Source: Spirochaetia bacterium (lineage in GTDB: Bacteria; Spirochaetota; Spirochaetia; SZUA-6; Bin103). Taken from it: a DNA stretch of 64,000 nt. A program made the translations under genes and the position numbers. Under the pieces are notes generated by a model, which worked only from the letters and a program-made list of their open reading frames with translations, did no database searches and was not told where the DNA came from. The stretch's first letter is position 1. Each line of letters starts with the position of its first letter. Where the stretch lies: NCBI GenBank assembly GCA_965203905.1, contig CBDBDQ010000005.1, positions 160,001 to 224,000 on the forward strand. Reading direction: 5' to 3'. This document shows, piece by piece, positions 21,594 through 31,816 of the stretch.

Positions 21594-24278
21594 TCAGCCG
21601 GCCGCTGAACTCTCGAGACGGGCACGTACCGAGGCAAGCACGGCGTCGAGGTCGGCCACGTGCCTTGCGCCGGCGGTGGCGAGCGTGGGTCGGCCACCGC
21701 CGCCGCCACCTGCCTTGGCCGCCGCCTCCTTGGCCAGGACGGCCGCGGAGATGCCGGGTTTCGCCGCGGCCAGATCGTCGCTCACCGCGCAGGCGATCGC
21801 CAGCCGACCGCCGAGCGTCGACACCAGGAATGCCACCGTGCCAGGCGCCCCGGTGCGCAGCCGTTCGGCGAGGGTCTTGAGCGCGGCCGGCTGCTGGTCG
21901 TCGAAGGAACGCAGGATCAGCCGCACGCCGCCGATCTCCTGGGCTTCGGCGGCCAACAGCCTGGCCTGCTGAGCGCTCCGCTCCGCCTCCAGCGTCTTGA
22001 CGCGCTTCTCCAGTTGCCGGGCGTGCTGCACCAGCTCCTCGGCGCGCTGGTCCAGCTCGGCGACCGAGCCGCCGACCAGCGCGCTGACCCGCTGCAGGGT
22101 GGCGCGCTGCGTCTGCATAAGCCCGACTGCGGCGGCGCCGGTAAGCGCCTCGATACGGCGCACACCGCTGGCAATGCTGCCCTCCGAGGTGACCACGAAG
22201 GGGCCGACCTGTCCGGTACGGCCGACGTGACAGCCACCGCACAGCTCCAGGCTCACCGGCTCCGACTCGGTGCCGACGCGCACCACCCGTACCGTGTCGC
22301 CGTACTTCTCTCCGAACAACGCCGTGGCGCCGAGCCGCAGCGCCTCGTCGAAGGCGGTGGTGAAGTACGCCACCGCGTGGTCGTCCTGCACCACCTCGTT
22401 GACGATCCGCTCGATTTCGCCGAGCTGTGCGGGCTCCACCCGCTGCCAGTGGGTAAAGTCGAAGCGCAGGTGGTCGGGGGCCACCAGCGAGCCCGACTGG
22501 TGCACGTGGTCGCCCAGGATGCGGCGCAGCGCCATGTGCAGCAGGTGGGTCGCGGTGTGGTTCGAGGTGGTCGGCCCGCGGCGGGCGGCTTCGACCCGGG
22601 CCGTGACCGGCGCGCTCCAGTCCGCACTCGCGAGGCCGTTTGCGGCGGCGCCGTCCGGCAGCCGGCAGCGGCAAATGCTCAGATCGCCGTCGCGCTGCGT
22701 ATCCTCCACGGTCAAGGTCAGCGCACCCGACTCGATGGCGCCGCGGTCGCCCACCTGGCCGCCCGCCTCCGCGTAGAATGGCGTTTCGGCCAGCACCACG
22801 TGCAGGCGGCCATCCGTCACGGCCCACTTGTGCACACTCGTCGTCACCTCGAGCTGCTCGTAGCCGACGAAGCGCTGCTGCTCCAGGGGCGTCACCGCTA
22901 CCCACTCGGAGGCCTCCACCCCGGCGGCGGTGAACTTGCCGGCGCGCCGCGCCCGCTCGCGCTGGTCCGCCATGGCGGCGTCGAAACCGGCCTGATCCAC
23001 CGTCAGACCGCGCTCGGCGGCCATCACCCGGGTCAGGTCCAGCGGAAAACCGTAGGTGTCGTAGAGGCGGAACGCCTCGGCGCCGGGCACCTCGCCCTGC
23101 TTGCGCTCAGCCACCTGTTGCACGATGCCGGAGAAGATGTCCAGGCCGCGGCCGAGGGTGCGGTTGAAGCTGGTCTCCTCCGCCTTGATCACCTCGCCGA
23201 TGTAGTCGACCCGCGCCGCCACCTCGGGGAACTCGGTGGTGTGCATCTCCGCCACCGTGGCCACCAGCCGGTGGATGAACGGCTCATGCTTCTCCAGCAG
23301 CCGGCCGTAGCGCGAGGCGCGCCGCAGCAGGCGCCGCAACACGTAGCCGCGGCCCTCGTTGGAGGGCAGCGCGCCATCGGCAATGGAGAAGCTCAGCATG
23401 CGCACGTGATCGGCCAGCACGCGAAACGCCACCTGCTGCTCCCCGGCGGCGTCCGCATAGCGCTGCCCCACCAGGTCGCCGATCCGCTCCATCAGCGGGC
23501 TGAACACGTCGGTGCTGTAGTTGTCGGTACCCTGCAGCACCGCCACCAGCCGCTCGAAGCCCATGCCGGTGTCGACGTGCTTCGCCGGCAACGGCTCCAG
23601 GATCCCGGCAGCGGTGCGGTTGAACTGGATGAACACCAGGTTCCAGATCTCGATGACGCGCGGATCGTCGGCGTTCACCAGGCTGCCGCCGGAGCCGTCC
23701 TCGGTCAGATCGACGTGAATCTCGGAGTTGGGGCCGCACGGGCCGGTGTCCGCCATCTCCCAGAAGTTGTCCTTCTTGCCGAACCGAAGCACATGTGCGG
23801 GGTCGATGTCGGTAACCGAGCGCCACAACCCCTCCGCCTCTTCGTCGGCCGGCAGGCCGTCCTGCTCGTCGCCGGCGAACACCGTGGCATACATCCGTTC
23901 CTTGGGTATGCCCCAGTGGTTCGTCAGCAAGTCCCACGCCCAGGCGATCGCCTCGCTCTTGAAATAGTCGCCGAACGACCAGTTTCCGAGCATCTCGAAG
24001 TAGGTGTGGTGGTAGGTGTCGTGCCCCACCTCTTCCAGGTCATTGTGCTTGCCGCTGACGCGAATGCACTTCTGGGTATCCACCGCGCGCACGTAGCTGC
24101 GGGTGCCGGTCCCGAGGAACACGTCCTTGAACTGGTTCATGCCGGCATTGGTGAACAGCAGCGTCGGGTCGTCGGCCGGGACCACCGGGGCACTGGGGAC
24201 CAGCGTGTGCTGGCGCTCCACGAAGTAGTCGAAGAACTCCTGGCGGATCTGGCGGGCGGTCTTGTCGGTCTTGAGCAT
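21594..24278 (-). CDS. alaS: Alanine--tRNA ligase
   Basis: DPTLLFTNAGMNQFK, HHTYFEMLGNWSFGDYFK, DTGMGFERL, editing motifs NHTATHLLH and ELCGGCHV, C-terminal GGGGGRP. Confidence 0.98.
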   Translation of the reverse strand: MLKTDKTARQIRQEFFDYFVERQHTLVPSAPVVPADDPTLLFTNAGMNQFKDVFLGTGTRSYVRAVDTQKCIRVSGKHNDLEEVGHDTYHHTYFEMLGNWSFGDYFKSEAIAWAWDLLTNHWGIPKERMYATVFAGDEQDGLPADEEAEGLWRSVTDIDPAHVLRFGKKDNFWEMADTGPCGPNSEIHVDLTEDGSGGSLVNADDPRVIEIWNLVFIQFNRTAAGILEPLPAKHVDTGMGFERLVAVLQGTDNYSTDVFSPLMERIGDLVGQRYADAAGEQQVAFRVLADHVRMLSFSIADGALPSNEGRGYVLRRLLRRASRYGRLLEKHEPFIHRLVATVAEMHTTEFPEVAARVDYIGEVIKAEETSFNRTLGRGLDIFSGIVQQVAERKQGEVPGAEAFRLYDTYGFPLDLTRVMAAERGLTVDQAGFDAAMADQRERARRAGKFTAAGVEASEWVAVTPLEQQRFVGYEQLEVTTSVHKWAVTDGRLHVVLAETPFYAEAGGQVGDRGAIESGALTLTVEDTQRDGDLSICRCRLPDGAAANGLASADWSAPVTARVEAARRGPTTSNHTATHLLHMALRRILGDHVHQSGSLVAPDHLRFDFTHWQRVEPAQLGEIERIVNEVVQDDHAVAYFTTAFDEALRLGATALFGEKYGDTVRVVRVGTESEPVSLELCGGCHVGRTGQVGPFVVTSEGSIASGVRRIEALTGAAAVGLMQTQRATLQRVSALVGGSVAELDQRAEELVQHARQLEKRVKTLEAERSAQQARLLAAEAQEIGGVRLILRSFDDQQPAALKTLAERLRTGAPGTVAFLVSTLGGRLAIACAVSDDLAAAKPGISAAVLAKEAAAKAGGGGGGRPTLATAGARHVADLDAVLASVRARLESSAAG

Positions 24279-24392
24279 CGCTTTTCGGGATGCACCCTAC
24301 CAGAAGCGGGCATTCTGTTCAGGTACCGGGTGGAGGCGGGGTGCCGGTGGGCGGCCTTTTCCAGGGCACGCGCTCCGGTGCAGGATGCGGCG

Positions 24393-24812
24393 ATGCTGCG
24401 CCTCCTGCTGGTGGTGATCGTGGCGGTGATCGCCGGCGTGTTCGCCTACCGCATCCCGGACCTGGACGTCGCGCTCCTCGGGGAAGAAGGGCGCGGCTTC
24501 TTCCTGTTCTACTCGGCGGCCGTGCCGGTGGTGCTGCTGTTCCTCAATTCGTGGCTGGAGGAGAGCGGCCTGATGAGCCGCCTGTTCGCGACCGGCGCCG
24601 CCATCGGCGTGGGCCTGGCGCTGGCGATCCGCCTCGCCACCGAGGTGTTCGCCCCCGAACCCTACCTGACGTTCCCGTTCTTCGGCGTGCTGCTGGAGGA
24701 CACCATCGCCGACGAGCGCGCCTGGCTGGTGGGCAACGCCGTGATCTCGGGGCTGGTGGCGATCGCCGCTTTCAGCAGCGCCGGCGAGAACACGCCCGTC
24801 GACGACGACTGA
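24393..24812 (+). CDS. Hypothetical membrane protein (about 4 TM segments)
   Basis: C-terminal part of ORF 21660..24812 from ATG 24393; hydrophobic segments and GC3-rich codon usage. Confidence 0.7.
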   Translation: MLRLLLVVIVAVIAGVFAYRIPDLDVALLGEEGRGFFLFYSAAVPVVLLFLNSWLEESGLMSRLFATGAAIGVGLALAIRLATEVFAPEPYLTFPFFGVLLEDTIADERAWLVGNAVISGLVAIAAFSSAGENTPVDDD

Positions 24813-24825
24813 CTGGCGGGCTGCG

Positions 24826-26070
24826 TCAGCCCGGGTATCCCCCGCCGCCGGTCTCGGCCACGCCGCGCTCCGCGGCGACGCGCTCGGCGCGGTCGTCGGA
24901 GCGGTAGGCGGCCAGCGGATCGGGCGGCAGATCCTGCTCCAGGCGGACCTGCGCCAGCAGCGGACGGACGTCGGTCTCGAAGGCGTCCACGTACACCCGG
25001 TGCGCGCCGAGCACGTCTCCTTCCGCCTGCCGTGCGCGCAGGGTCTCGTAGTCGACGACAAGCGCCTTGGCGTAGGCGGTCTGGCAGTTGAGCACGCTCA
25101 CCAGCATCGCCTCCAGCTTGGGTTCGAGGTTGTGGCTCTGGTCGATCATGTACGCCACGTCCGCCGCGGCCGCGCCCGCACTCACCAGCTCGCAGAAGAT
25201 CTCGAACAGCTCGAACGGGTTGGTGGAGCCGACGATCAGGTCGTCGTCAGCGTAACGGCGCGAGTTGAAGTGAAATCCTCCGAGCCGTCCCTCGGCGAGC
25301 AGGTAACTCACGATGTGGGCGATGTTGGTGGACAGCGCGTGGTGCCCGGTATCCACCAGCACCTCCGCCTGCGCTCCCAGCTTGAGCGCGGTGGCGTAGG
25401 CGATGCCCCAGTCGGCCAGATCGGTGTGATAGAACCCCGGCTCGAAGAACTTGTACTCCAGCAGCATGCGGCCGGCCGACGGCAGGTGGGCGTACACCTC
25501 GGCCAGCGCGCCCTCCAGGCGCGCCTTGCGGCTCGCCATGCTGTCCTGGCCGGCGTAGTTGGTGCCGTCCGCCAGCCACACGCTGAGCAGGTCGCTGCCG
25601 GTGGCGGCCATGATCCGGCAACAGTCGATCATGTGCTCCACGGCGCGCTCCCGCACCTCCGCGGAGGGGTGGCAGATGCTGCCCAGCTTGTAGATCTCGT
25701 CCTGAAACACGTTGGGGTTGATCGCCCCGATGCCTACCCCGCGCTCGGCGGCGTACTGCCCGAGCGCCGGCCAGTCGTCCACCCGGTCCCACGGGATGTG
25801 CAGCGCCACGGTCGGCGCCGCGCCGGTGAGGCGGTGAATATAGGCCGCGTCATCCAGCTTCTCATGCACGTTGCGGGCCGCGCCCGGCCAGGGAAACACC
25901 TTGAAGCGGGTGCCGCTGTTGCCATAGCCCCAGGAGGGCGTCTCGATGGCCTGCGCCTTGAGCTTCTCCTTGACGGCGGCGACGTCGACCCCGCTCCGGG
26001 TCAGGGTCGCGGCGAGGCTGTCGTAGGCGGCGTCGATTGCCGCTGCGGTGGCATCCATGACGCTCAGCAT
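24826..26070 (-). CDS. rhaI: L-rhamnose isomerase (RhaI type)
   Basis: [67 protein letters not shown]. Confidence 0.92.
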
Positions 26071-26153
26071 GCCCGACCGCAGGTTTGGCGTCTACGCCAC
26101 GGCCACCCTCCGGTCCCTTGACGCCAGCGCCCGCGCCGGGTACCCAGCTAGCC

Positions 26154-26492
26154 ATGAGCGAAACACGGCGCTTCGGCATGGTCATCGGAGTCCGGCCCGA
26201 GCGGCTGCAGGAGTACCGCGCGCTGCACGCCGATTCCCATCCCGGCGTGCGCGACCTGCTGGACACGGTCCACATGCGCAACTTCTCGATCTACCTGCAG
26301 CAGCTGCCGGACGGCAACCACTACCTGTTCGGCTACTACGAGTACGACGGGACCGACTACGAGGCCGACATGGCCAGGCTGGCCGCCGAGCCCCGCAACC
26401 GGGAGTGGCTGGCAATGTGCGACCCGATGCAGATCCCGCTGCCGGGGGAACCCACCTGGAAGCAGATGGAGCGCGTCTACTACCAAGCCTGA
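26154..26492 (+). CDS. rhaM: L-rhamnose mutarotase family protein
   Basis: RFGMVIGVRPE...EYRALH, MRNFSIYL, LFGYYEY, WKQMERVYY; divergent from the rhamnose isomerase. Confidence 0.85.
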   Translation: MSETRRFGMVIGVRPERLQEYRALHADSHPGVRDLLDTVHMRNFSIYLQQLPDGNHYLFGYYEYDGTDYEADMARLAAEPRNREWLAMCDPMQIPLPGEPTWKQMERVYYQA

Positions 26493-26574
26493 GTTGGGAG
26501 GCACCGACCCAGCCGCCTCTCACGCCTTGTGGTCCGCCGCTTTCGACCGCTTGACACGATGGTGCACATTGTGT

Positions 26575-26890
26575 AATTGTCGTAGCCATAGGTTTCGCGC
26601 GGATTTCAAAGTTCTGGTGTCTTGTGCACCGTTGAGTGGAGAATCCCATGCGGAGTTCCGGCTGTCGATGCGTTGTGTCGGCCCGGAACGCGGTCAAGAG
26701 GCCAGAGCGAAGACTTGGGCGGTACCGCCCTCTCTTCGTTAGCTAGCTTGACTTAAAGGCGTGGAGATGGAGTTGGACGATACTATTCTTAAGTTATTTT
26801 GATAACTTCCGTACCAATTCGTCGCTAACCTTCAAGCAACGAACCAAATGGAAATAGCCGCCTCACAGTCTGTAGCGCGGCTATTTTTAT
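26575..26890 (+). ncRNA. Candidate structured non-coding RNA (unassigned family)
   Basis: Upstream TTGACA(26551)-N15-TGTAAT; hairpins 26655-26689, 26692-26753 and 26766-26823, the last two with G-U pairs that form only on the + strand; ends in a terminator; no convincing ORF. Confidence 0.4.
26852..26890. terminator. Intrinsic terminator hairpin, probably bidirectional
   Basis: AAATAGCCGC...GCGGCTATTT stem with a T run on the + strand and a short A run on the 5' side; abuts the stop of the 26887..27774 gene. Confidence 0.75.
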
Positions 26891-27774
26891 CTGATGTTGT
26901 CGTTAGGCGCAACATTGATGTGGCGTCGCTTCCGTGCAACGGTTTGTTCTTCGTGGCAGCCGGGGAAGTTCCTGTTCTTCGTTTTGCTCACCTCGCAGTC
27001 GTAGTGGAATCGTGGATCGAAGGAGACACCGAATCTAAGTCGACCGCGGATCACACAAGATGCGTTGTGCGATCCTTCCTCCCAAAACGGCGCAAGGGCA
27101 TGTCTCGCAGCTGCCTTTGCAGGGCACTTGAAAACCAATCCTCTGTTCCCCACGAAGTACTTACCCTCTTTGACAGGGAGAGAGTTGGCCAGTCTTTTTA
27201 GGCGTATCCTAAAGTCATCGGGTTCTTCACCACTTCGAACCGCGGCATGGACGAGCTCACAAACCTTCAAGAAACCATGTCCGAATGATTTTGGTGGAAG
27301 CAGGAGACACGTCCTATTGTCCCGATTGGTGACTTCCTCAGAGATTACTGAAAAGAACGCTTGCACCTTCTTCAGTGCCCGTTTGATCTCTTTGAACAGC
27401 ACGTTGGCCGCAAAGCCCCTTTCATTTTTGGTACGCATGCGGACAACCCCGGTTGCACGGAGTGGTGCAATGAGTGCCTCCACGCCAAACTTTTCGAAGA
27501 TCGCATGTTCGCATGAGTCAATCCGGTCAGCATATAGTAAGATCAGCCTAGCGTTGCGAAGAAGCGTGTCACGGTCGTCCGGAAGGCGCTCCTTGAGTTC
27601 ATGGGCGACACGTTCGTAAAGTCTTGCGACGTACTCCTTCGTATAGCCATGCGGACAACGAAGACGTCTCAGTGGAATTAACTCCTCATTTCGGGTTCGT
27701 TCAAACCACCCTGCTAACTGCCACAGTGTCTGAGGTTGAAGTCCGGCCACGACAACAAACATCCTCTTTTTCAC
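26887..27774 (-). CDS. Hypothetical basic protein, C-terminal His/Asp/Cys motifs (possible nuclease/toxin)
   Basis: 295-aa ORF in a lower-GC patch, GTGA-coupled to the upstream gene; motifs LLLPPKSF, RLRFG, FHYDC, FPGCH, HINVAPNDNIR. Confidence 0.75.
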   Translation of the reverse strand: MKKRMFVVVAGLQPQTLWQLAGWFERTRNEELIPLRRLRCPHGYTKEYVARLYERVAHELKERLPDDRDTLLRNARLILLYADRIDSCEHAIFEKFGVEALIAPLRATGVVRMRTKNERGFAANVLFKEIKRALKKVQAFFSVISEEVTNRDNRTCLLLPPKSFGHGFLKVCELVHAAVRSGEEPDDFRIRLKRLANSLPVKEGKYFVGNRGLVFKCPAKAAARHALAPFWEEGSHNASCVIRGRLRFGVSFDPRFHYDCEVSKTKNRNFPGCHEEQTVARKRRHINVAPNDNIR

Positions 27775-28469
27775 GGCGACTGGCGCCTCAATTTGAGAAC
27801 CACGTCCAAGGGAATGACAACTCGTTTGAGCTCGCTGGGTTCAAGAGATTCCAACACACGGTCAAGCAAATCCTGAGATCCTGATGTCCGCGATGTTTGT
27901 GATGGTGAAAGACGATAGGCTTCGGAGTCAACTTGGTTCTCTTCCAACCACTGACGTATCTTACTTCGAATCTCAGACGAGTCCACATCACGTCCAAGTA
28001 CGTACTCGCGGCTGACTTCTCTACCGAATGGTGTTTCATCAGCGGACAGATCTCGGAACTCAATTGGTTCATGATCAGTCAGGTAACGCCGCTTAGACTC
28101 TTCCAGGGGCACGCGAAAAGCTGCCCAAAATGCGGGATAGAATCGTGGTATATTTTCTGCCTCAGTCCGTTGAGTCCGCTCCAAGAGCGGCTCCGATCCG
28201 CCCTCTGAATCGACGTCGACCGATAAAGGAAGCGCTCCAACTAATTGTGTCTTAGTTGAGTGTTGGATTACCTGTACCTGATCCGAAAGTCGGGTGGTCA
28301 GGTACTGCTTTAGGGTCATTCCGAGTCTCTTTATCTCTGTGGACAGCTCCGCGCCATCTTGGTTTCCCAGACGGCTTAGCAGCAGCGGGAGCCTTTCATG
28401 CTCCCAGCACTGGCGAACCGAATCTACGATCCGCATGTTGAGATCATCTCTACTACAATTGCCCGACAT
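27771..28469 (-). CDS. Hypothetical protein with possible N-terminal LOTUS/OST-HTH-like domain
   Basis: 232-aa ORF; PLLLSRLG...TLKQYL...VQVI resembles the LOTUS pattern; RFYPAFWAAF core; helical C-terminus LLDRVLESL...IPLDVVLKL. Confidence 0.72.
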   Translation of the reverse strand: MSGNCSRDDLNMRIVDSVRQCWEHERLPLLLSRLGNQDGAELSTEIKRLGMTLKQYLTTRLSDQVQVIQHSTKTQLVGALPLSVDVDSEGGSEPLLERTQRTEAENIPRFYPAFWAAFRVPLEESKRRYLTDHEPIEFRDLSADETPFGREVSREYVLGRDVDSSEIRSKIRQWLEENQVDSEAYRLSPSQTSRTSGSQDLLDRVLESLEPSELKRVVIPLDVVLKLRRQSP

Positions 28470-28476
28470 AGTCCGT

Positions 28477-28485
28477 AGGATACCA
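28477..28485 (-). promoter_or_regulatory. Extended -10 element for a probable leaderless transcript of the two-gene cassette
   Basis: TGG-TATCCT 7 nt upstream of ATG 28469; no Shine-Dalgarno sequence. Confidence 0.5.
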
Positions 28486-28734
28486 CAGTCGGACGAATGC
28501 GGTAGGTCCTTCGGGTGGATCTCTCACACAGGGCGGGCGGGCACCCGATACACCTCAACAGCGAAGAGATACGAGAGAATCCAGGATGGCGGCTACAGGC
28601 GCACGACGGTGGGGCCCGCGGTCCGGTCTGTCGCAGCTCCGCTTTGCGTGGCGTCAAACAATCTCCCGCCCATCACCGTGGCCGTGGTTCCCCACTCGAC
28701 ATTTTCGGCGCTGCACTTCAATCTGCCCCCCGTC

Positions 28735-29763
28735 GTGCAACGCAAGCAGATTCAGGACGCGTTCTTCGTCGTGCTGCTGATGGGGCTCAGCGCGGCCTTC
28801 ATACGGCTGCTGGCACCCTACCTGGTGGCGGTCGCCGTGGCGGTGATCCTGGCGCTGCTGTTGCGCCACCCATTGAACTGGCTGCTGAGGCGGGGTGTGG
28901 CACGCGGCCTGGCGACGGCGCTGGTGGTGGTAGCCCTGATCGTGCTCGGCGCCGTGTTCCTGGGCCTGTTCGGGATCCTGGTCACCTCGGAGCTGGAAGA
29001 GGGAGTGCGCATCGTCCGCTCGGAGTGGCCGAAGCTGCTGGCATGGGCACAGGAGCGGTTGCCGGGGGTGCAGGCGCTGGTGGAGCAGTTCGAGCTGGAG
29101 CAACGCATCTCCGATCTGCTCGGCAACGCCGCAAGCCAGATCCTGAGCCTGTCGCAGACGGCGCTGAGCAGCCTCGCCGGTGGCATCGTACGCGCGGTTG
29201 TGGTGGCCTTCCTGGTGATCTATCTGCTGCTGGAAGGCGAGAAGCTGGTGGAACGGCTCTACCGGCTGCTGCCGCTGGACCGCGCCCGCACCGACGAACT
29301 GATGCAGCACGCCGCCCGCACCCTGGACGCGACCGTGCTCGGCACCCTGTTCATCGGCGTGCTGGAGGGCACCTTCGGGGGGTTGCTGTTTGCGCTGTTC
29401 GGACTCCCCTCCGCCACCCTGTGGGGCCTGATCATGGTGCTGGTGTCGGTGCTGCCGCTGCTGGGCATCAACGCGGTGGTCGTGCCGGCGGGGGTGGTGC
29501 TGATCATCATGGGCGACGTGGGCCGTGGCGTCGGGCTGATCGTGGTGGGCGTGGCCGGAGCAATGGTCAGCCAGAACCTCCTGCGCCCGAAGCTGGTCGG
29601 CGATCGCTCGGGGCTGCATCCGGCGCTGGTGCTGCTGGCGACCCTTGGCGGGCTCGCCTGGCTGGGACTGGTCGGCTTCGTGATCGGCCCCATGCTGGCG
29701 ACGCTGGCCACGATCGCCTGGGAGCAGTTCGCCAGCCGCCACGGGGAGGACGCGGCGTCGTAG
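28735..29763 (+). CDS. AI-2E family transporter
   Basis: GTG 28735; multiple TM segments, QNLLRPKLVG, LHPALVLLATLGG, GFVIGP. Confidence 0.88.
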   Translation: MQRKQIQDAFFVVLLMGLSAAFIRLLAPYLVAVAVAVILALLLRHPLNWLLRRGVARGLATALVVVALIVLGAVFLGLFGILVTSELEEGVRIVRSEWPKLLAWAQERLPGVQALVEQFELEQRISDLLGNAASQILSLSQTALSSLAGGIVRAVVVAFLVIYLLLEGEKLVERLYRLLPLDRARTDELMQHAARTLDATVLGTLFIGVLEGTFGGLLFALFGLPSATLWGLIMVLVSVLPLLGINAVVVPAGVVLIIMGDVGRGVGLIVVGVAGAMVSQNLLRPKLVGDRSGLHPALVLLATLGGLAWLGLVGFVIGPMLATLATIAWEQFASRHGEDAAS

Positions 29764-29773
29764 GCGACCACTC

Positions 29774-30877
29774 TTACGGGTTCAACGCGTGCAGCTCCTC
29801 CGGCACGAACAGCCCATCCTTGCGGATCAGTCGGTCGTCGAAGTAGATCTCGCCGCCGCCGTACTCGGGACGCTGAATCACCACCAGGTCCCAGTGCACC
29901 TCGGAGCGGTTGCCGTTGTCCGCCTCCTCGTAGGCCTGGCCGGGAGTGAAGTGGAACGAGCCGGCGATCTTCTCGTCGAACAGAGTGTCGAGCATCGGCT
30001 GCATGATGCGGGGGTTGAACCCGAGCGAGAACTCGCCGATGTAGCGGGCGCCAGGATCGGTGTCCAGGATCTGCTCCAGCCGGGCGCGATGGTTGGCGTC
30101 GGCGCCGACGATCTTGCCGGCCGCGAACTCGAAGCGGAGGTCATCGAACACGATGCCGCGGTTGAGGCTGGGGGTGTTGACGCTCAGGGTGCCCTCCACC
30201 GAGTCGCGCACCGGGCTGGTGAACATCTCGCCGTCGGGGATGTTGCGATGGCCGGAACAGCCGATCACCGGGATGTCGCGGATCGAGAAGCGCAGGTCGG
30301 TGCCGGGCCCCACGATCCGCACCCGGTCGGACTGCTCCATGAGCTCCCGTAACGGCACCATGGAGCGGGCCATGGCGGGATAGTCAACGGTGCAGACCTC
30401 GAAGTAGAAGTCCTCGAAGGCGTCGGTGCTCATCTGTGCCTGCTGCGCCATGGACGGCGTGGGCCAGCGCAACACCACCCAGCGGGTCCGCTTGATGCGC
30501 ATCTCGGTGTGCACGGCGTTCCACACGTAACGCGAGTAGTGGGCGTAACGCTCGTGCGGCACGTCGCCCAGCTCGGTGCTGTTCAGCGTGCCGCGCAGGC
30601 CGACGTAGCACTGCACCTGCTCCATCTGACGGGCCTCGACGCTGCCCCACACCTGCATCTGCTCGGGGGTGGCGTTGCGGTACAGGGCGCGCAGCACGCG
30701 GTTGCTCTTGGTGACGCAGAGGGGATGGCCGCCGGCGGCGGCTATCGTGTCGATCAGCACCACCAGAAACTGCTCCGGCATGTCGAACGCTTCGATCAGC
30801 ACCTTGTCGCCGTCGCCCACGGCACAGGCGTGATGGACGATGATGTCGGCCAGGCGCTGGTAACGGGGATCGGCCAT
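29774..30877 (-). CDS. Aminopeptidase (M29, AmpS/AmpT family)
   Basis: MADPRYQRLA, WPTPSMAQQA, NIPDGEMFTSP, IGEFSLG, LFDEKIAGSFHFTPG, NRSEVHWDLV. Confidence 0.93.
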   Translation of the reverse strand: MADPRYQRLADIIVHHACAVGDGDKVLIEAFDMPEQFLVVLIDTIAAAGGHPLCVTKSNRVLRALYRNATPEQMQVWGSVEARQMEQVQCYVGLRGTLNSTELGDVPHERYAHYSRYVWNAVHTEMRIKRTRWVVLRWPTPSMAQQAQMSTDAFEDFYFEVCTVDYPAMARSMVPLRELMEQSDRVRIVGPGTDLRFSIRDIPVIGCSGHRNIPDGEMFTSPVRDSVEGTLSVNTPSLNRGIVFDDLRFEFAAGKIVGADANHRARLEQILDTDPGARYIGEFSLGFNPRIMQPMLDTLFDEKIAGSFHFTPGQAYEEADNGNRSEVHWDLVVIQRPEYGGGEIYFDDRLIRKDGLFVPEELHALNP

Positions 30878-30898
30878 ACCCGGATCGTAGCATCAAAC

Positions 30899-31816
30899 TC
30901 AGTTCACGCGCATCGCGGCGCTGCGTACGCGCACCGGAATGGTGCGTGCGCGAGCCGGTGCCGGCGGGCGGTCGCCGGCAAGCGCCAGCAGGCGACCCAC
31001 GCGCTCGCGGACCGGCGGATGGCTGTCGGTCAGCCGTGCCTGCGCGGGGGCGGCACGGTAGCCGAACATCAACTCCCACCAGGTGCGGGCACGCCGCTCC
31101 AGGGACACCAGCGCGGAGGCCAGCCCGCGCGGATCGCCGCTCAGCGCAGCGGCGATCCGGTCGGCGTTGAACTCCCGTGAGCGCGCCAGGGCCATCCGCA
31201 ACAGGCCGCTCAGCGTCGGCGCCGCCAGCATCAGCAGCACCACGGACAGCGGAATGCCGATGACGCCCAGGGCGAGCGCGGGCAACGTGAACAACAGTCC
31301 CAATCCGCCGACCAGGGCCAACCCGCCGGTCAGGCGGCGCATGGAACCGGCGAGACTCGCCAGCCACACGTCGTTGGCCTGGATGTGCGCGATCTCGTGG
31401 GCCAGCACGCCGCGCACCTCGCGCCGGTCGAGGGACGCCAGCAACGCATCGGTCACCAGCAGCGCGGCGGCGTCGCGCGTGCCCATGGTCATGGCGTTGG
31501 GCTGTGGAGCTCGCAGCAGGAACAGTGCGGGAGGCCGGACGCCGGCGCGACCGGCCAGCTCGGCCACCTGCCGGTGCAGCCACGGCGCCCGGTACGCGTC
31601 GAGCGGAACCGCCCCCAGGTGCAGCATGTTGGCAACTGCCGATCCTCGAGGCATGCCGGCAGCCAGCAGCACCACGCCGACGCCGAGTGCCAGCGCCAGG
31701 CCGGCGGTTCCGAGCAGGTACGAGCCGATGACGACCAGCAGTCCCGCCATGGCCAGCAGATACGCGGCGGCGGTGAACACGGCGGCGATCGGGGTGGAGT
31801 GTTTCGTCATGGCCAT
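30899..31816 (-). CDS. htpX: M48 zinc metalloprotease, HtpX-like
   Basis: PNA, GVLAHEIAHI (HExxH), SREFNAD, SHPPVRERV; N-terminal TM segments. Confidence 0.85.
   Translation of the reverse strand: MAMTKHSTPIAAVFTAAAYLLAMAGLLVVIGSYLLGTAGLALALGVGVVLLAAGMPRGSAVANMLHLGAVPLDAYRAPWLHRQVAELAGRAGVRPPALFLLRAPQPNAMTMGTRDAAALLVTDALLASLDRREVRGVLAHEIAHIQANDVWLASLAGSMRRLTGGLALVGGLGLLFTLPALALGVIGIPLSVVLLMLAAPTLSGLLRMALARSREFNADRIAAALSGDPRGLASALVSLERRARTWWELMFGYRAAPAQARLTDSHPPVRERVGRLLALAGDRPPAPARARTIPVRVRSAAMRVN

Follow-up and report, generated by a model that had tools for sequence, protein, structure and literature searches.

A mobile cassette of two linked protein genes and a convergent structured RNA in Spirochaetia: possibly a toxin-antitoxin-like or defence module

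The locus described here raises the question of what a short insert of low guanine plus cytosine (GC) content, holding two overlapping genes for proteins without a family name, is doing between rhaM and the gene of an AI-2E family transporter in a Spirochaetia bacterium (assembly GCA_965203905.1, contig CBDBDQ010000005.1). The whole stretch analysed, positions 160,001 to 224,000 of that contig (64,000 nucleotides, nt), is referred to as the window, and coordinates are counted from its first letter unless another genome is named. An earlier note, made from the letters of the window, had put the insert forward as a new toxin-antitoxin or anti-phage module, possibly of three components. The insert holds a horizontally mobile cassette of three parts: a LOTUS-like protein (gene 1), a protein with a conserved Cys/His-rich C-terminus (gene 2) and, on the opposite strand, a structured RNA; these are strictly linked to one another and decay asymmetrically, the protein genes being lost and the RNA end retained. 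As to its function, we tentatively read it as a toxin-antitoxin-like or defence/abortive-infection-type module in which the RNA would restrain the gene 2 enzyme, a reading to which we give a probability of roughly 0.4.

The insert is clearly delimited by base composition, as had been noted before, with a GC content of 0.50-0.54 over 26600-28600 as against 0.64-0.74 in both flanks. These are formed by rhaM, encoding an L-rhamnose mutarotase (PF05336, E 5.5e-21), and the transporter gene (PF01594, E 1.5e-53), with a rhamnose-isomerase-like gene and an M29 peptidase gene farther out. A search of 31 related genomes for the two flanks found three of the same genus (G004, G006 and G007) in which only ~40 base pairs (bp) separate the stop codon of rhaM from the CTCGACATTTTCGG motif that precedes the transporter gene, and the insert in the window therefore spans some 2.2 kilobases (kb; Table 1), its junctions being unmapped to the base since the flanks of the empty-site genomes are only 74-83% identical. 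A single copy of the cassette is present in the window's genome, as judged by protein search and by a covariance model of the RNA.

A neighbouring structured RNA had been mentioned in passing as a possible third component; its existence is borne out by covariation, and its strand proved to be the one opposite to the genes. Just past gene 2, over 100-300 nt, loci with proteins of 40-50% identity still agree at 70-90% of positions, and the RNA core has 72% nucleotide identity compared with 60% for gene 2 DNA, being the higher of the two in 62 of 66 pairs (the two proteins show 48% and 42% amino-acid identity). When 16 sequences were folded together with RNAalifold, the strand opposite the genes gave -56.4 kcal/mol and 53 pairs, 21 of them with compensatory changes, compared with -20.9 kcal/mol and 27 pairs, 11 with compensatory changes, for the gene strand. 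In the same alignment 95.5% of cells are able to pair, as against 39-52% when the partners are slid, and none of 500 shuffles scored as high; in 30 model-aligned sequences, an alignment fitted to the model and hence biased towards the structure, 94.1% of cells pair and 36 of the 53 pairs are changed on both sides. The covariance model matches the window at 26550-26775 on the + strand with 180 bits. No Rfam 15 covariance model matched at E <= 1 within 24000-31000, and at E <= 10 the only match within 26520-26900 was a terminator-like, partial one to OrzO-P (16.7 bits compared with a gathering score of 60).

Including its 3' part the structured RNA is ~300 nt overall, runs convergent to the genes and has a sigma70-type promoter of its own. 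The promoter pattern, TTGACA, 17 nt, NANNNT, 6-8 nt and then GGTTTCGCG, is common to most of 29 loci compared, with L023 and L024 deviating in the -35 box; conservation stops upstream of this box, and the promoter is therefore taken as the edge of the cassette. The core is followed by a variable linker, a small hairpin with CGUCGCUAAC and a hairpin shared with gene 2. In 17 sequences of the small hairpin TAG.G is invariant and the remaining GTTAGCGAC block nearly so. The terminator proposed in the earlier note can be identified with the shared hairpin, which overlaps the gene 2 stop codon, carries compensatory changes in its arms (e.g., AGCCGCG/CGCGGCT versus AGCCACC/GGTGGCT), is followed on the + strand by a T-run (TTTTTAT) 3' of the stem, and probably terminates both convergent units. 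The transcript is expected to start near GGUUUCGCG (~26590) and to end at the T-run after 26886.

Linkage of the parts was followed in 31 loci, found through gene 2 in a scan of one genome per species, in assemblies of Spirochaetia, Gammaproteobacteria and Alphaproteobacteria. In 24 of them gene 2 is immediately preceded by gene 1 in the same orientation; in the other seven gene 2 is either 5'-truncated (L001, L017, L022, L025 and L028) or at a contig end (L023 and L029), and the two genes are adjacent wherever gene 2 is of full length, just as had been expected of a true pair. The coupling of the two open reading frames, whose earlier coordinates were exact, is likewise a property of the family: the stop/start overlap (NTGA, read as GTGA in the window) is kept in 20 of 22 related loci, and for this reason the GTG is favoured as the start of gene 2 over the downstream ATG of the database record. 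The covariance model matches 30 of 36 sources, 14 loci which did not enter the seed among them, and in each case the match lies immediately 3' of gene 2 on the other strand. There are 23 distinct loci with the pair and the RNA, and every intact pair of the near clade has the RNA in the same place and orientation, so that the idea of three components is upheld in the sense of co-inheritance. Pairs without a model match are found only where divergence is greatest (L026, L027, L030 and L046, which is on a plasmid), in clades where the RNA model loses reach; two of these loci score 21 bits (L030) and 7 bits (L046) at the position where the RNA would be expected.

The loci in decay tell in which direction the cassette comes apart. 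Ten distinct loci carry the RNA with truncated or deleted proteins (L001, L017, L022, L025, L028, L043, L044, L049, L052 and L054), the decayed copies having lost their 5' part (gene 1 together with the beginning of gene 2) but not the RNA end. Solo RNAs in G018, G034 (at 6.02 Mb), G010 and G009 have no protein remnant and sit in a low-GC islet of only 200-400 bp, which retains the promoter, core, small hairpin and terminator; in G018 and G034 the RNA is intact without the proteins (187-189 bits). The last 12-25 nt of gene 2 are kept in G018, in G001 and in part in G034, and the solo loci therefore arose by deletion. Of 92 genomes of the order which were sampled independently, nine have the RNA and five gene 2, all of them in one family, and genomes other than the window's have at most two or three loci each.

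Several individual loci add to this picture. G034, which holds a full cassette and a solo RNA elsewhere, has a second, divergent copy of gene 2 (G034:C1:604645-605544, 146 bits) near which a genome-wide search gave no RNA match. At L043/L048 (G018:C1 ~1930345-1930560) an intact orphan RNA of 189 bits lies beside short open reading frames resembling transposase fragments and an amidohydrolase-like gene, the pair being absent. At L028/L056 (G031:C1 ~6423802-6424068) an RNA match of 50 bits overlaps, on the opposite strand, a fragment matching positions 238-282 of the gene 2 profile, which looks like a rearranged remnant. In the DNA runs X2-X4, in which the cassette is present, there are, over window 26688-26767 and 26882-26916, extra short contigs matching the RNA core alone and one contig with 98 letters instead of 114 between the RNA core and the terminator; these samples seem to contain several variant cassettes or solo RNAs side by side.

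Table 1. Features of the insert and its cassette in the window
Feature	Position	Strand	Description or basis
Whole insert, relative to the same-genus empty site	26493..28694	.	empty sites and GC drop
Conserved cassette proper	~26550-28490	.	part of the insert 26493..28694
RNA promoter, -35 TTGACA at 26551-26556, ~17 nt spacer, weak -10-like box	26551..26579	+	cassette outer edge
RNA core, ~185 nt, four-way junction with closing stem P1 and arms P2-P3, P4 and P5-P7	26590..26772	+	covariation
Small conserved hairpin, nearly invariant CGUCGCUAAC	26819..26843	+	alignment of 17 sequences
Hairpin between the convergent units, overlapping the gene 2 stop codon	26845..26893	.	inverted repeat I2
Gene 2, 295 amino acids (aa)	26887..27774	-	N-terminal Rossmann/flavodoxin-like alpha/beta, helical middle, small beta-rich C-terminal domain
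Gene 1, 232 aa	27771..28469	-	LOTUS-like winged helix (residues 4-83), middle alpha/beta domain, conserved C-terminal helical tail
Promoter-like TGTGGTATCCT	28477..28487	-	read from the sequence, weak evidence

Gene 2 belongs to a large family, with 320 relatives at E <= 0.001 in a word-indexed search and 528 representatives (50% clustering) in an exhaustive profile search at the same threshold; among the best 150 of the 528 nearly all are 280-310 aa long. The C-terminal cluster of Cys and His residues which had been picked out by eye is the conserved core of this family: in 65 sequences, down to 20% identity, L159, P160, H225, C240, R247, G249, H257, D259, C273 and N287 are invariant, and at least 90% conservation is found for G11, Y44, T155, L158, F164, F215, P218, H236, F256, Y258, C260, H274, P290, N291, D292 and R295. 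Going by these residues, the C-terminus may combine a putative Cys/His metal site with a polar catalytic centre, and gene 2 would be a metal-dependent effector enzyme with its active site in the invariant Cys/His/Asp/Asn C-terminal domain. The AlphaFold2 model has a predicted local distance difference test score (pLDDT) of 88.3 and a predicted template modelling score of 0.88. Foldseek returned nothing for it at E <= 0.001 in PDB and nothing among viral structures, and VIA-align gave only generic Rossmann, flavodoxin or Toprim-like matches over residues 2-145 with Z <= 7.9, values of a size common without kinship; these searches are dominated by the N-terminal residues and barely cover the C-terminal domain. 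For the latter domain, then, the fold searches say little, and Pfam and PDB profile searches gave no match to HNH/His-Me finger or other metal nucleases. When 79 divergent relatives of gene 2 were compared with Pfam there were just five sub-threshold matches, to five unrelated families.

For gene 1, 37 homologues were found at E <= 0.001, of which 33 were aligned; D9-L10 are conserved upstream of the database start M12, and a start at M1 is therefore favoured. Its C-terminal helical tail is conserved as LL..L..LEP.ELKR...PLDVV.KLRR. The resemblance to LOTUS/OST-HTH domains which had been suggested appears to hold for the type of fold, and fails for membership of the family. In the AlphaFold2 model (pLDDT 80.5) the N-terminus is a winged helix, and the top three of 48,161 PDB chains matched to residues 4-83 in VIA-align were the LOTUS domains of TDRD7 (Z 7.8, root-mean-square deviation 2.3 A, 71 of 76 residues aligned), TDRD5 (Z 7.6) and Tejas (Z 7.5), which align over 70-74 residues, with Oskar at Z 6.2; these scores lie below the tool's caution line of Z 8, and the winged helix of ScpA is close behind at Z 7.1. 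The best Foldseek match was also TDRD7 (E 0.41, TMt 0.60), with nothing in PDB at E <= 0.001 for the model, and residues 90-232 are without a match. None of the 33 family members matches PF12872 (OST-HTH) at E <= 1, and the OST-HTH cluster of the ESM Atlas scores only 0.77 against gene 1. The leaderless-type promoter which had been proposed for gene 1 is borne out in part: in the window there is a promoter-like box, TGTGGTATCCT, 7 nt before the ATG, but a strict consensus promoter scan found no site, and in other loci promoter-like boxes lie instead 40-50 nt upstream of the start, in sequence which is unconserved beyond ~50-70 nt.

Neither protein has a match at E <= 1 in Pfam, NCBIfam or PADLOC (PADLOC-DB 2.0); in PHROGs the best E values are 0.2-0.5, and sequence-profile searches of PDB gave nothing meaningful. 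The pair is unmatched in every curated family library searched, and public records give neither family a name, one member being listed as "hypothetical protein". A predicted complex of the two proteins scored 0.00, which by the tool's own account is no evidence either way.

The cassette is horizontally mobile, as seen from its low-GC island, its unrelated neighbours and the empty sites within the genus. At nearly all loci the pair forms a sharp island of GC 0.46-0.57 in flanks of 0.6-0.75. A scan of the neighbours at 18 loci (81 open reading frames, the nearest of 129 candidates) found them to differ at every locus and to be mostly metabolic; the expectation that homologues would sit beside defence genes was mostly not borne out, neighbours of mobile or defence type being present in ~5 of the 18 (a 1904-aa DEAD helicase at L007, Y2_Tnp at L008, two Uma2 at L010, DDE_Tnp_1 at L011 and DUF6119 at L018). 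Phage records gave no tblastn match, viral contigs of IMG/VR held neither a relative of gene 2 nor the RNA pattern, and the RNA pattern, validated on known loci, was not matched in JGI metagenome contigs. Among plasmids there was a single distant match, of 29% identity, to a plasmid filed as Synechocystis sp. B12, in a part that carries no annotation, and blastn gave no RNA match.

The gap between rhaM and the transporter gene has been filled in more than one way. In the closest relative (G003, flanks 89-92% identical) the same gap holds a different low-GC pair (L041, G003:C158 2669-4254), which matches HEC-02B (E 3.7e-160) and HEC-02A (E 3e-63) of PADLOC. HEC-02 is reported to reduce phage plaquing and to require both of its genes (10.1101/2024.01.29.577857). 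The pair in G003, an ABC-type ATPase and a NERD nuclease, resembles the present cassette in its position and in being a two-gene, low-GC cassette of ~1.7 kb, but is unrelated in sequence to genes 1 and 2. HEC-02 is not known to have an RNA component. The site is therefore occupied by the cassette in the window, by HEC-02 in G003 and by a decayed copy of the cassette in G001, and is empty in the three genomes of the same genus; it looks like a small integration hotspot without a visible integrase or tRNA, and offers a natural example of one chromosomal site which may be empty, hold this cassette or hold a known defence system.

The reading which we favour is that of a mobile three-component module, in which a promoter would drive gene 1 and the coupled gene 2 towards a hairpin terminator shared with the convergent RNA, which carries its own promoter at the outer edge. 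The effector would be a metal-dependent enzyme encoded by gene 2, with the gene 1 protein as its RNA-binding partner by way of the LOTUS-like winged helix; the RNA, if abundant, would bind one or both proteins and hold the effector in check, the enzyme being released once the RNA is lost or displaced, for example on phage infection or on loss of the cassette. RNA-protein binding, enzymatic activity, toxicity and a role in defence are each predictions of this reading. It would explain why the RNA accompanies every near-clade pair, why the RNA outlives the proteins and not the reverse, why the cassette behaves as selfish or defence cargo, and why it shares a hotspot with a defence system. The case for a toxin-antitoxin or anti-phage function is circumstantial, and is made by HEC-02 in the same gap, the mobile low-GC island and the asymmetric decay.

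An RNA which acted as an antisense regulator of its own cassette might be expected to pair best with its own genes; the idea was tried and rejected, as the predicted duplex with the start region of its own gene 1 (-45.6 kcal/mol) is equal to that with other loci's (-45.3 kcal/mol), and the same holds for gene 2 (-49.8 compared with -50.3 kcal/mol). The lack of locus-specific antisense pairing fits a protein-binding RNA. Amongst known systems the cassette would work most like type III toxin-antitoxin, whose defining layout it fails to have. In type III systems (ToxIN, CptIN and TenpIN) a tandem-repeat RNA lies upstream of the toxin gene on the same strand, a terminator stands before the toxin, and the toxin is an endoribonuclease. 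The likeness would lie in an effector beside a structured, abundant non-coding RNA which keeps it in check, in the small mobile cassette, in a role in abortive infection, and in an RNA which outlives the toxin gene in decayed loci. Here, in contrast, the RNA lies downstream in convergent orientation, forms a single four-way junction of ~185 nt and not a repeat array (no tandem repeat families were found in 26300-28900), goes with two proteins and is more conserved than either; for gene 2 there is no PADLOC or Pfam match to ToxN, AbiQ or another toxin family. Type I toxin-antitoxin, with its small hydrophobic toxin and mRNA-pairing antisense RNA, differs in both respects, the cassette proteins being of 232 and 295 aa and antisense pairing being absent.

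A number of points weigh against an RNA-restrained module. No known homologue backs toxicity, nuclease activity or defence, and a PADLOC match is absent for both proteins at the threshold given above. Most copies lie amid housekeeping genes, and guilt by association is weak beyond the single hotspot. A layout which is convergent, downstream and free of tandem repeats is that of neither type I nor type III toxin-antitoxin. Conservation is also far stronger in the RNA than in the proteins, which could mean that the RNA instead has a conserved host component as its partner; such conservation is unusual for antitoxin RNAs, which co-evolve with their toxins. The retention of the RNA in decayed loci could also reflect an independent useful function and not neutralisation. 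That the RNA is abundant is hinted at in a relative, whose metatranscriptome contigs have a depth of 414 for the RNA and 816 for a piece of the core compared with 6-8 for gene 1 and the 5' part of gene 2, depths which come from that relative's contigs in one RNA library where DNA is possibly present and which do not rank the parts of the genes.

Some of these same points suit a ribonucleoprotein with no part in conflict, in which the RNA would act as a regulator of host physiology and would itself be processed, modified or chaperoned by the proteins, or serve them as a scaffold, the cassette spreading as it is useful in its habitat. The RNA is the most conserved part and stands intact without the proteins in G018 and G034, it may be abundant, most copies lie amid metabolic genes, and a LOTUS-like fold fits RNA binding. 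Against this, the spread is patchy (nine of 92 genomes of the order, in one family) and scattered over Spirochaetia, Alpha- and Gammaproteobacteria, the GC content is foreign in every host, decay is frequent, and the site is alternatively occupied by a defence system; patchiness, foreign GC, decay and a shared site are what is commonly seen in conflict or selfish cargo and not in a stable accessory function, and we consider an accessory role of this kind unlikely, though one to be taken seriously.

The same linkage, mobility and hotspot would also be expected if the module were one of defence or conflict in which the RNA serves as sensor, guide or activator, the ribonucleoprotein recognising nucleic acid or protein of an invader through the conserved single-stranded segments of the RNA before gene 2 acts. 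Conservation of the unpaired segments from host to host is very strong, as would suit the recognition of something conserved, and a LOTUS-domain protein, SzsA, is reported to guard P. aeruginosa against RNA phages and has been proposed to recruit effectors to phage RNA (10.64898/2026.04.06.716636). There is no obvious reason, however, why such an RNA should be retained once the proteins are lost, yet ten loci do so, and a variable, spacer-like segment with matches was not found; this is rather less probable than an accessory role. In the wider group of OST-HTH/LOTUS proteins (TDRD5, TDRD7, Oskar and Tejas, of which the domains superpose best on residues 4-83 of gene 1, together with bacterial NYN-LOTUS proteins and SzsA), the domain is often paired with a nucleic-acid enzyme. 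Gene 1 is likewise paired with gene 2, a putative nucleic-acid enzyme, but lacks profile membership, and its partner is not a NYN, PIN or helicase protein.

A self-mobile element, in which the proteins and RNA would form machinery for RNA-guided or templated movement, the RNA end acting in cis and the solo or 5'-truncated copies being non-autonomous or abortive insertions, we hold to be just as doubtful as a sensor or guide. In its favour are the sharp insert of 1.6-2.2 kb, which lacks an integrase or transposase and lies in intergenic sites unrelated to each other, conservation which breaks off precisely at the RNA promoter's -35 box, and the decayed copies, which drop the 5' part and retain the RNA end. 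To these may be added weak, sub-threshold matches of eight of the 33 gene 1 homologues to Pfam DDE_Tnp_1_assoc, which accompanies some transposases (best E 0.017), and the nearest named ESM Atlas clusters of gene 2, which are hAT-type "RNase-like" with a best score of 0.82, a level reached by chance. RNA-guided mobile elements (the bridge RNA of IS110 and the omega RNA of IS200/IS605 TnpB) do carry a structured RNA of ~150-200 nt at the element end beside protein genes, and the cassette RNA is of similar size and lies at the very end, next to its protein genes. In contrast to these elements, there is a single copy in the window's genome and at most two or three loci in others, the RNA is encoded on the other strand under a promoter of its own, and Foldseek against PDB and VIA-align found no recombinase-like, RuvC-like or transposase fold for gene 2. 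Terminal inverted repeats and target duplications were not seen at the edges, junctions there being unmapped to the base, and the last gene 2 codons at some solo loci mark deletions and not separate insertions. The idea of a guide or bridge RNA was rejected by a crude exact-match test at 21 loci, in which the longest match of the RNA to its own flanks (8.62 nt) was no longer than that to the flanks of other loci (8.63 nt); identity with an insertion sequence or transposon was rejected too, as edge repeats and a transposase family or fold were not found and the genome holds one copy.

A chance association of the RNA gene with the protein pair, as unrelated neighbours which happen to travel together, is very improbable and already nearly refuted by their co-occurrence: the RNA does have its own promoter and can stand alone, but all 23 near-clade intact pairs have it in the same place and orientation, in hosts of three bacterial classes and amid unrelated neighbours, and both units share the terminator hairpin overlapping the gene 2 stop.

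Neither the cassette nor its RNA was found described in a limited search of the literature on bacterial LOTUS/OST-HTH defence or toxin-antitoxin systems and on orphan type III RNA antitoxins. We regard it as an RNA-containing conflict cassette all of whose parts are undescribed, and there is a fair chance that its mechanism is new. The most far-reaching form of this, a new RNA-centred mobile module with the ~185-nt RNA at its core, a LOTUS-like dedicated binding partner and an effector of a new Cys/His metalloenzyme fold, working either as an RNA-neutralised toxin or as an RNA-dependent immune or mobility machine of undescribed mechanism, is a possibility which we rate as unlikely, on a par with an accessory role. 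What is well supported is a new class of structured RNA (36 covarying pairs, own promoter and terminator) tied to two unnamed protein families which have hundreds of members, nearly all known solely from uncultured bacteria. If the RNA does restrain the enzyme, the architecture would be a toxin-antitoxin or defence one distinct from types I and III, and the LOTUS fold, familiar mainly from germline proteins of animals, would gain a defined bacterial RNA partner. The cassette is only ~2 kb and its conserved residues make clear targets for mutation, so that these ideas are directly testable in Escherichia coli.

Two smaller observations concern the surroundings of the pair. On the plasmid (L046, CP101710.1, 4142-5813) the distant pair lies between genes for a 3'-5' exoribonuclease, a WYL-domain protein and a multiubiquitin-domain protein, and its GC content of 0.5-0.7 seems high for Synechocystis. 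In the window, the ~225 bp from gene 1 to the point where similarity to the empty site resumes (28470-28694) have an intermediate GC content of ~0.6 and are unconserved in other loci.

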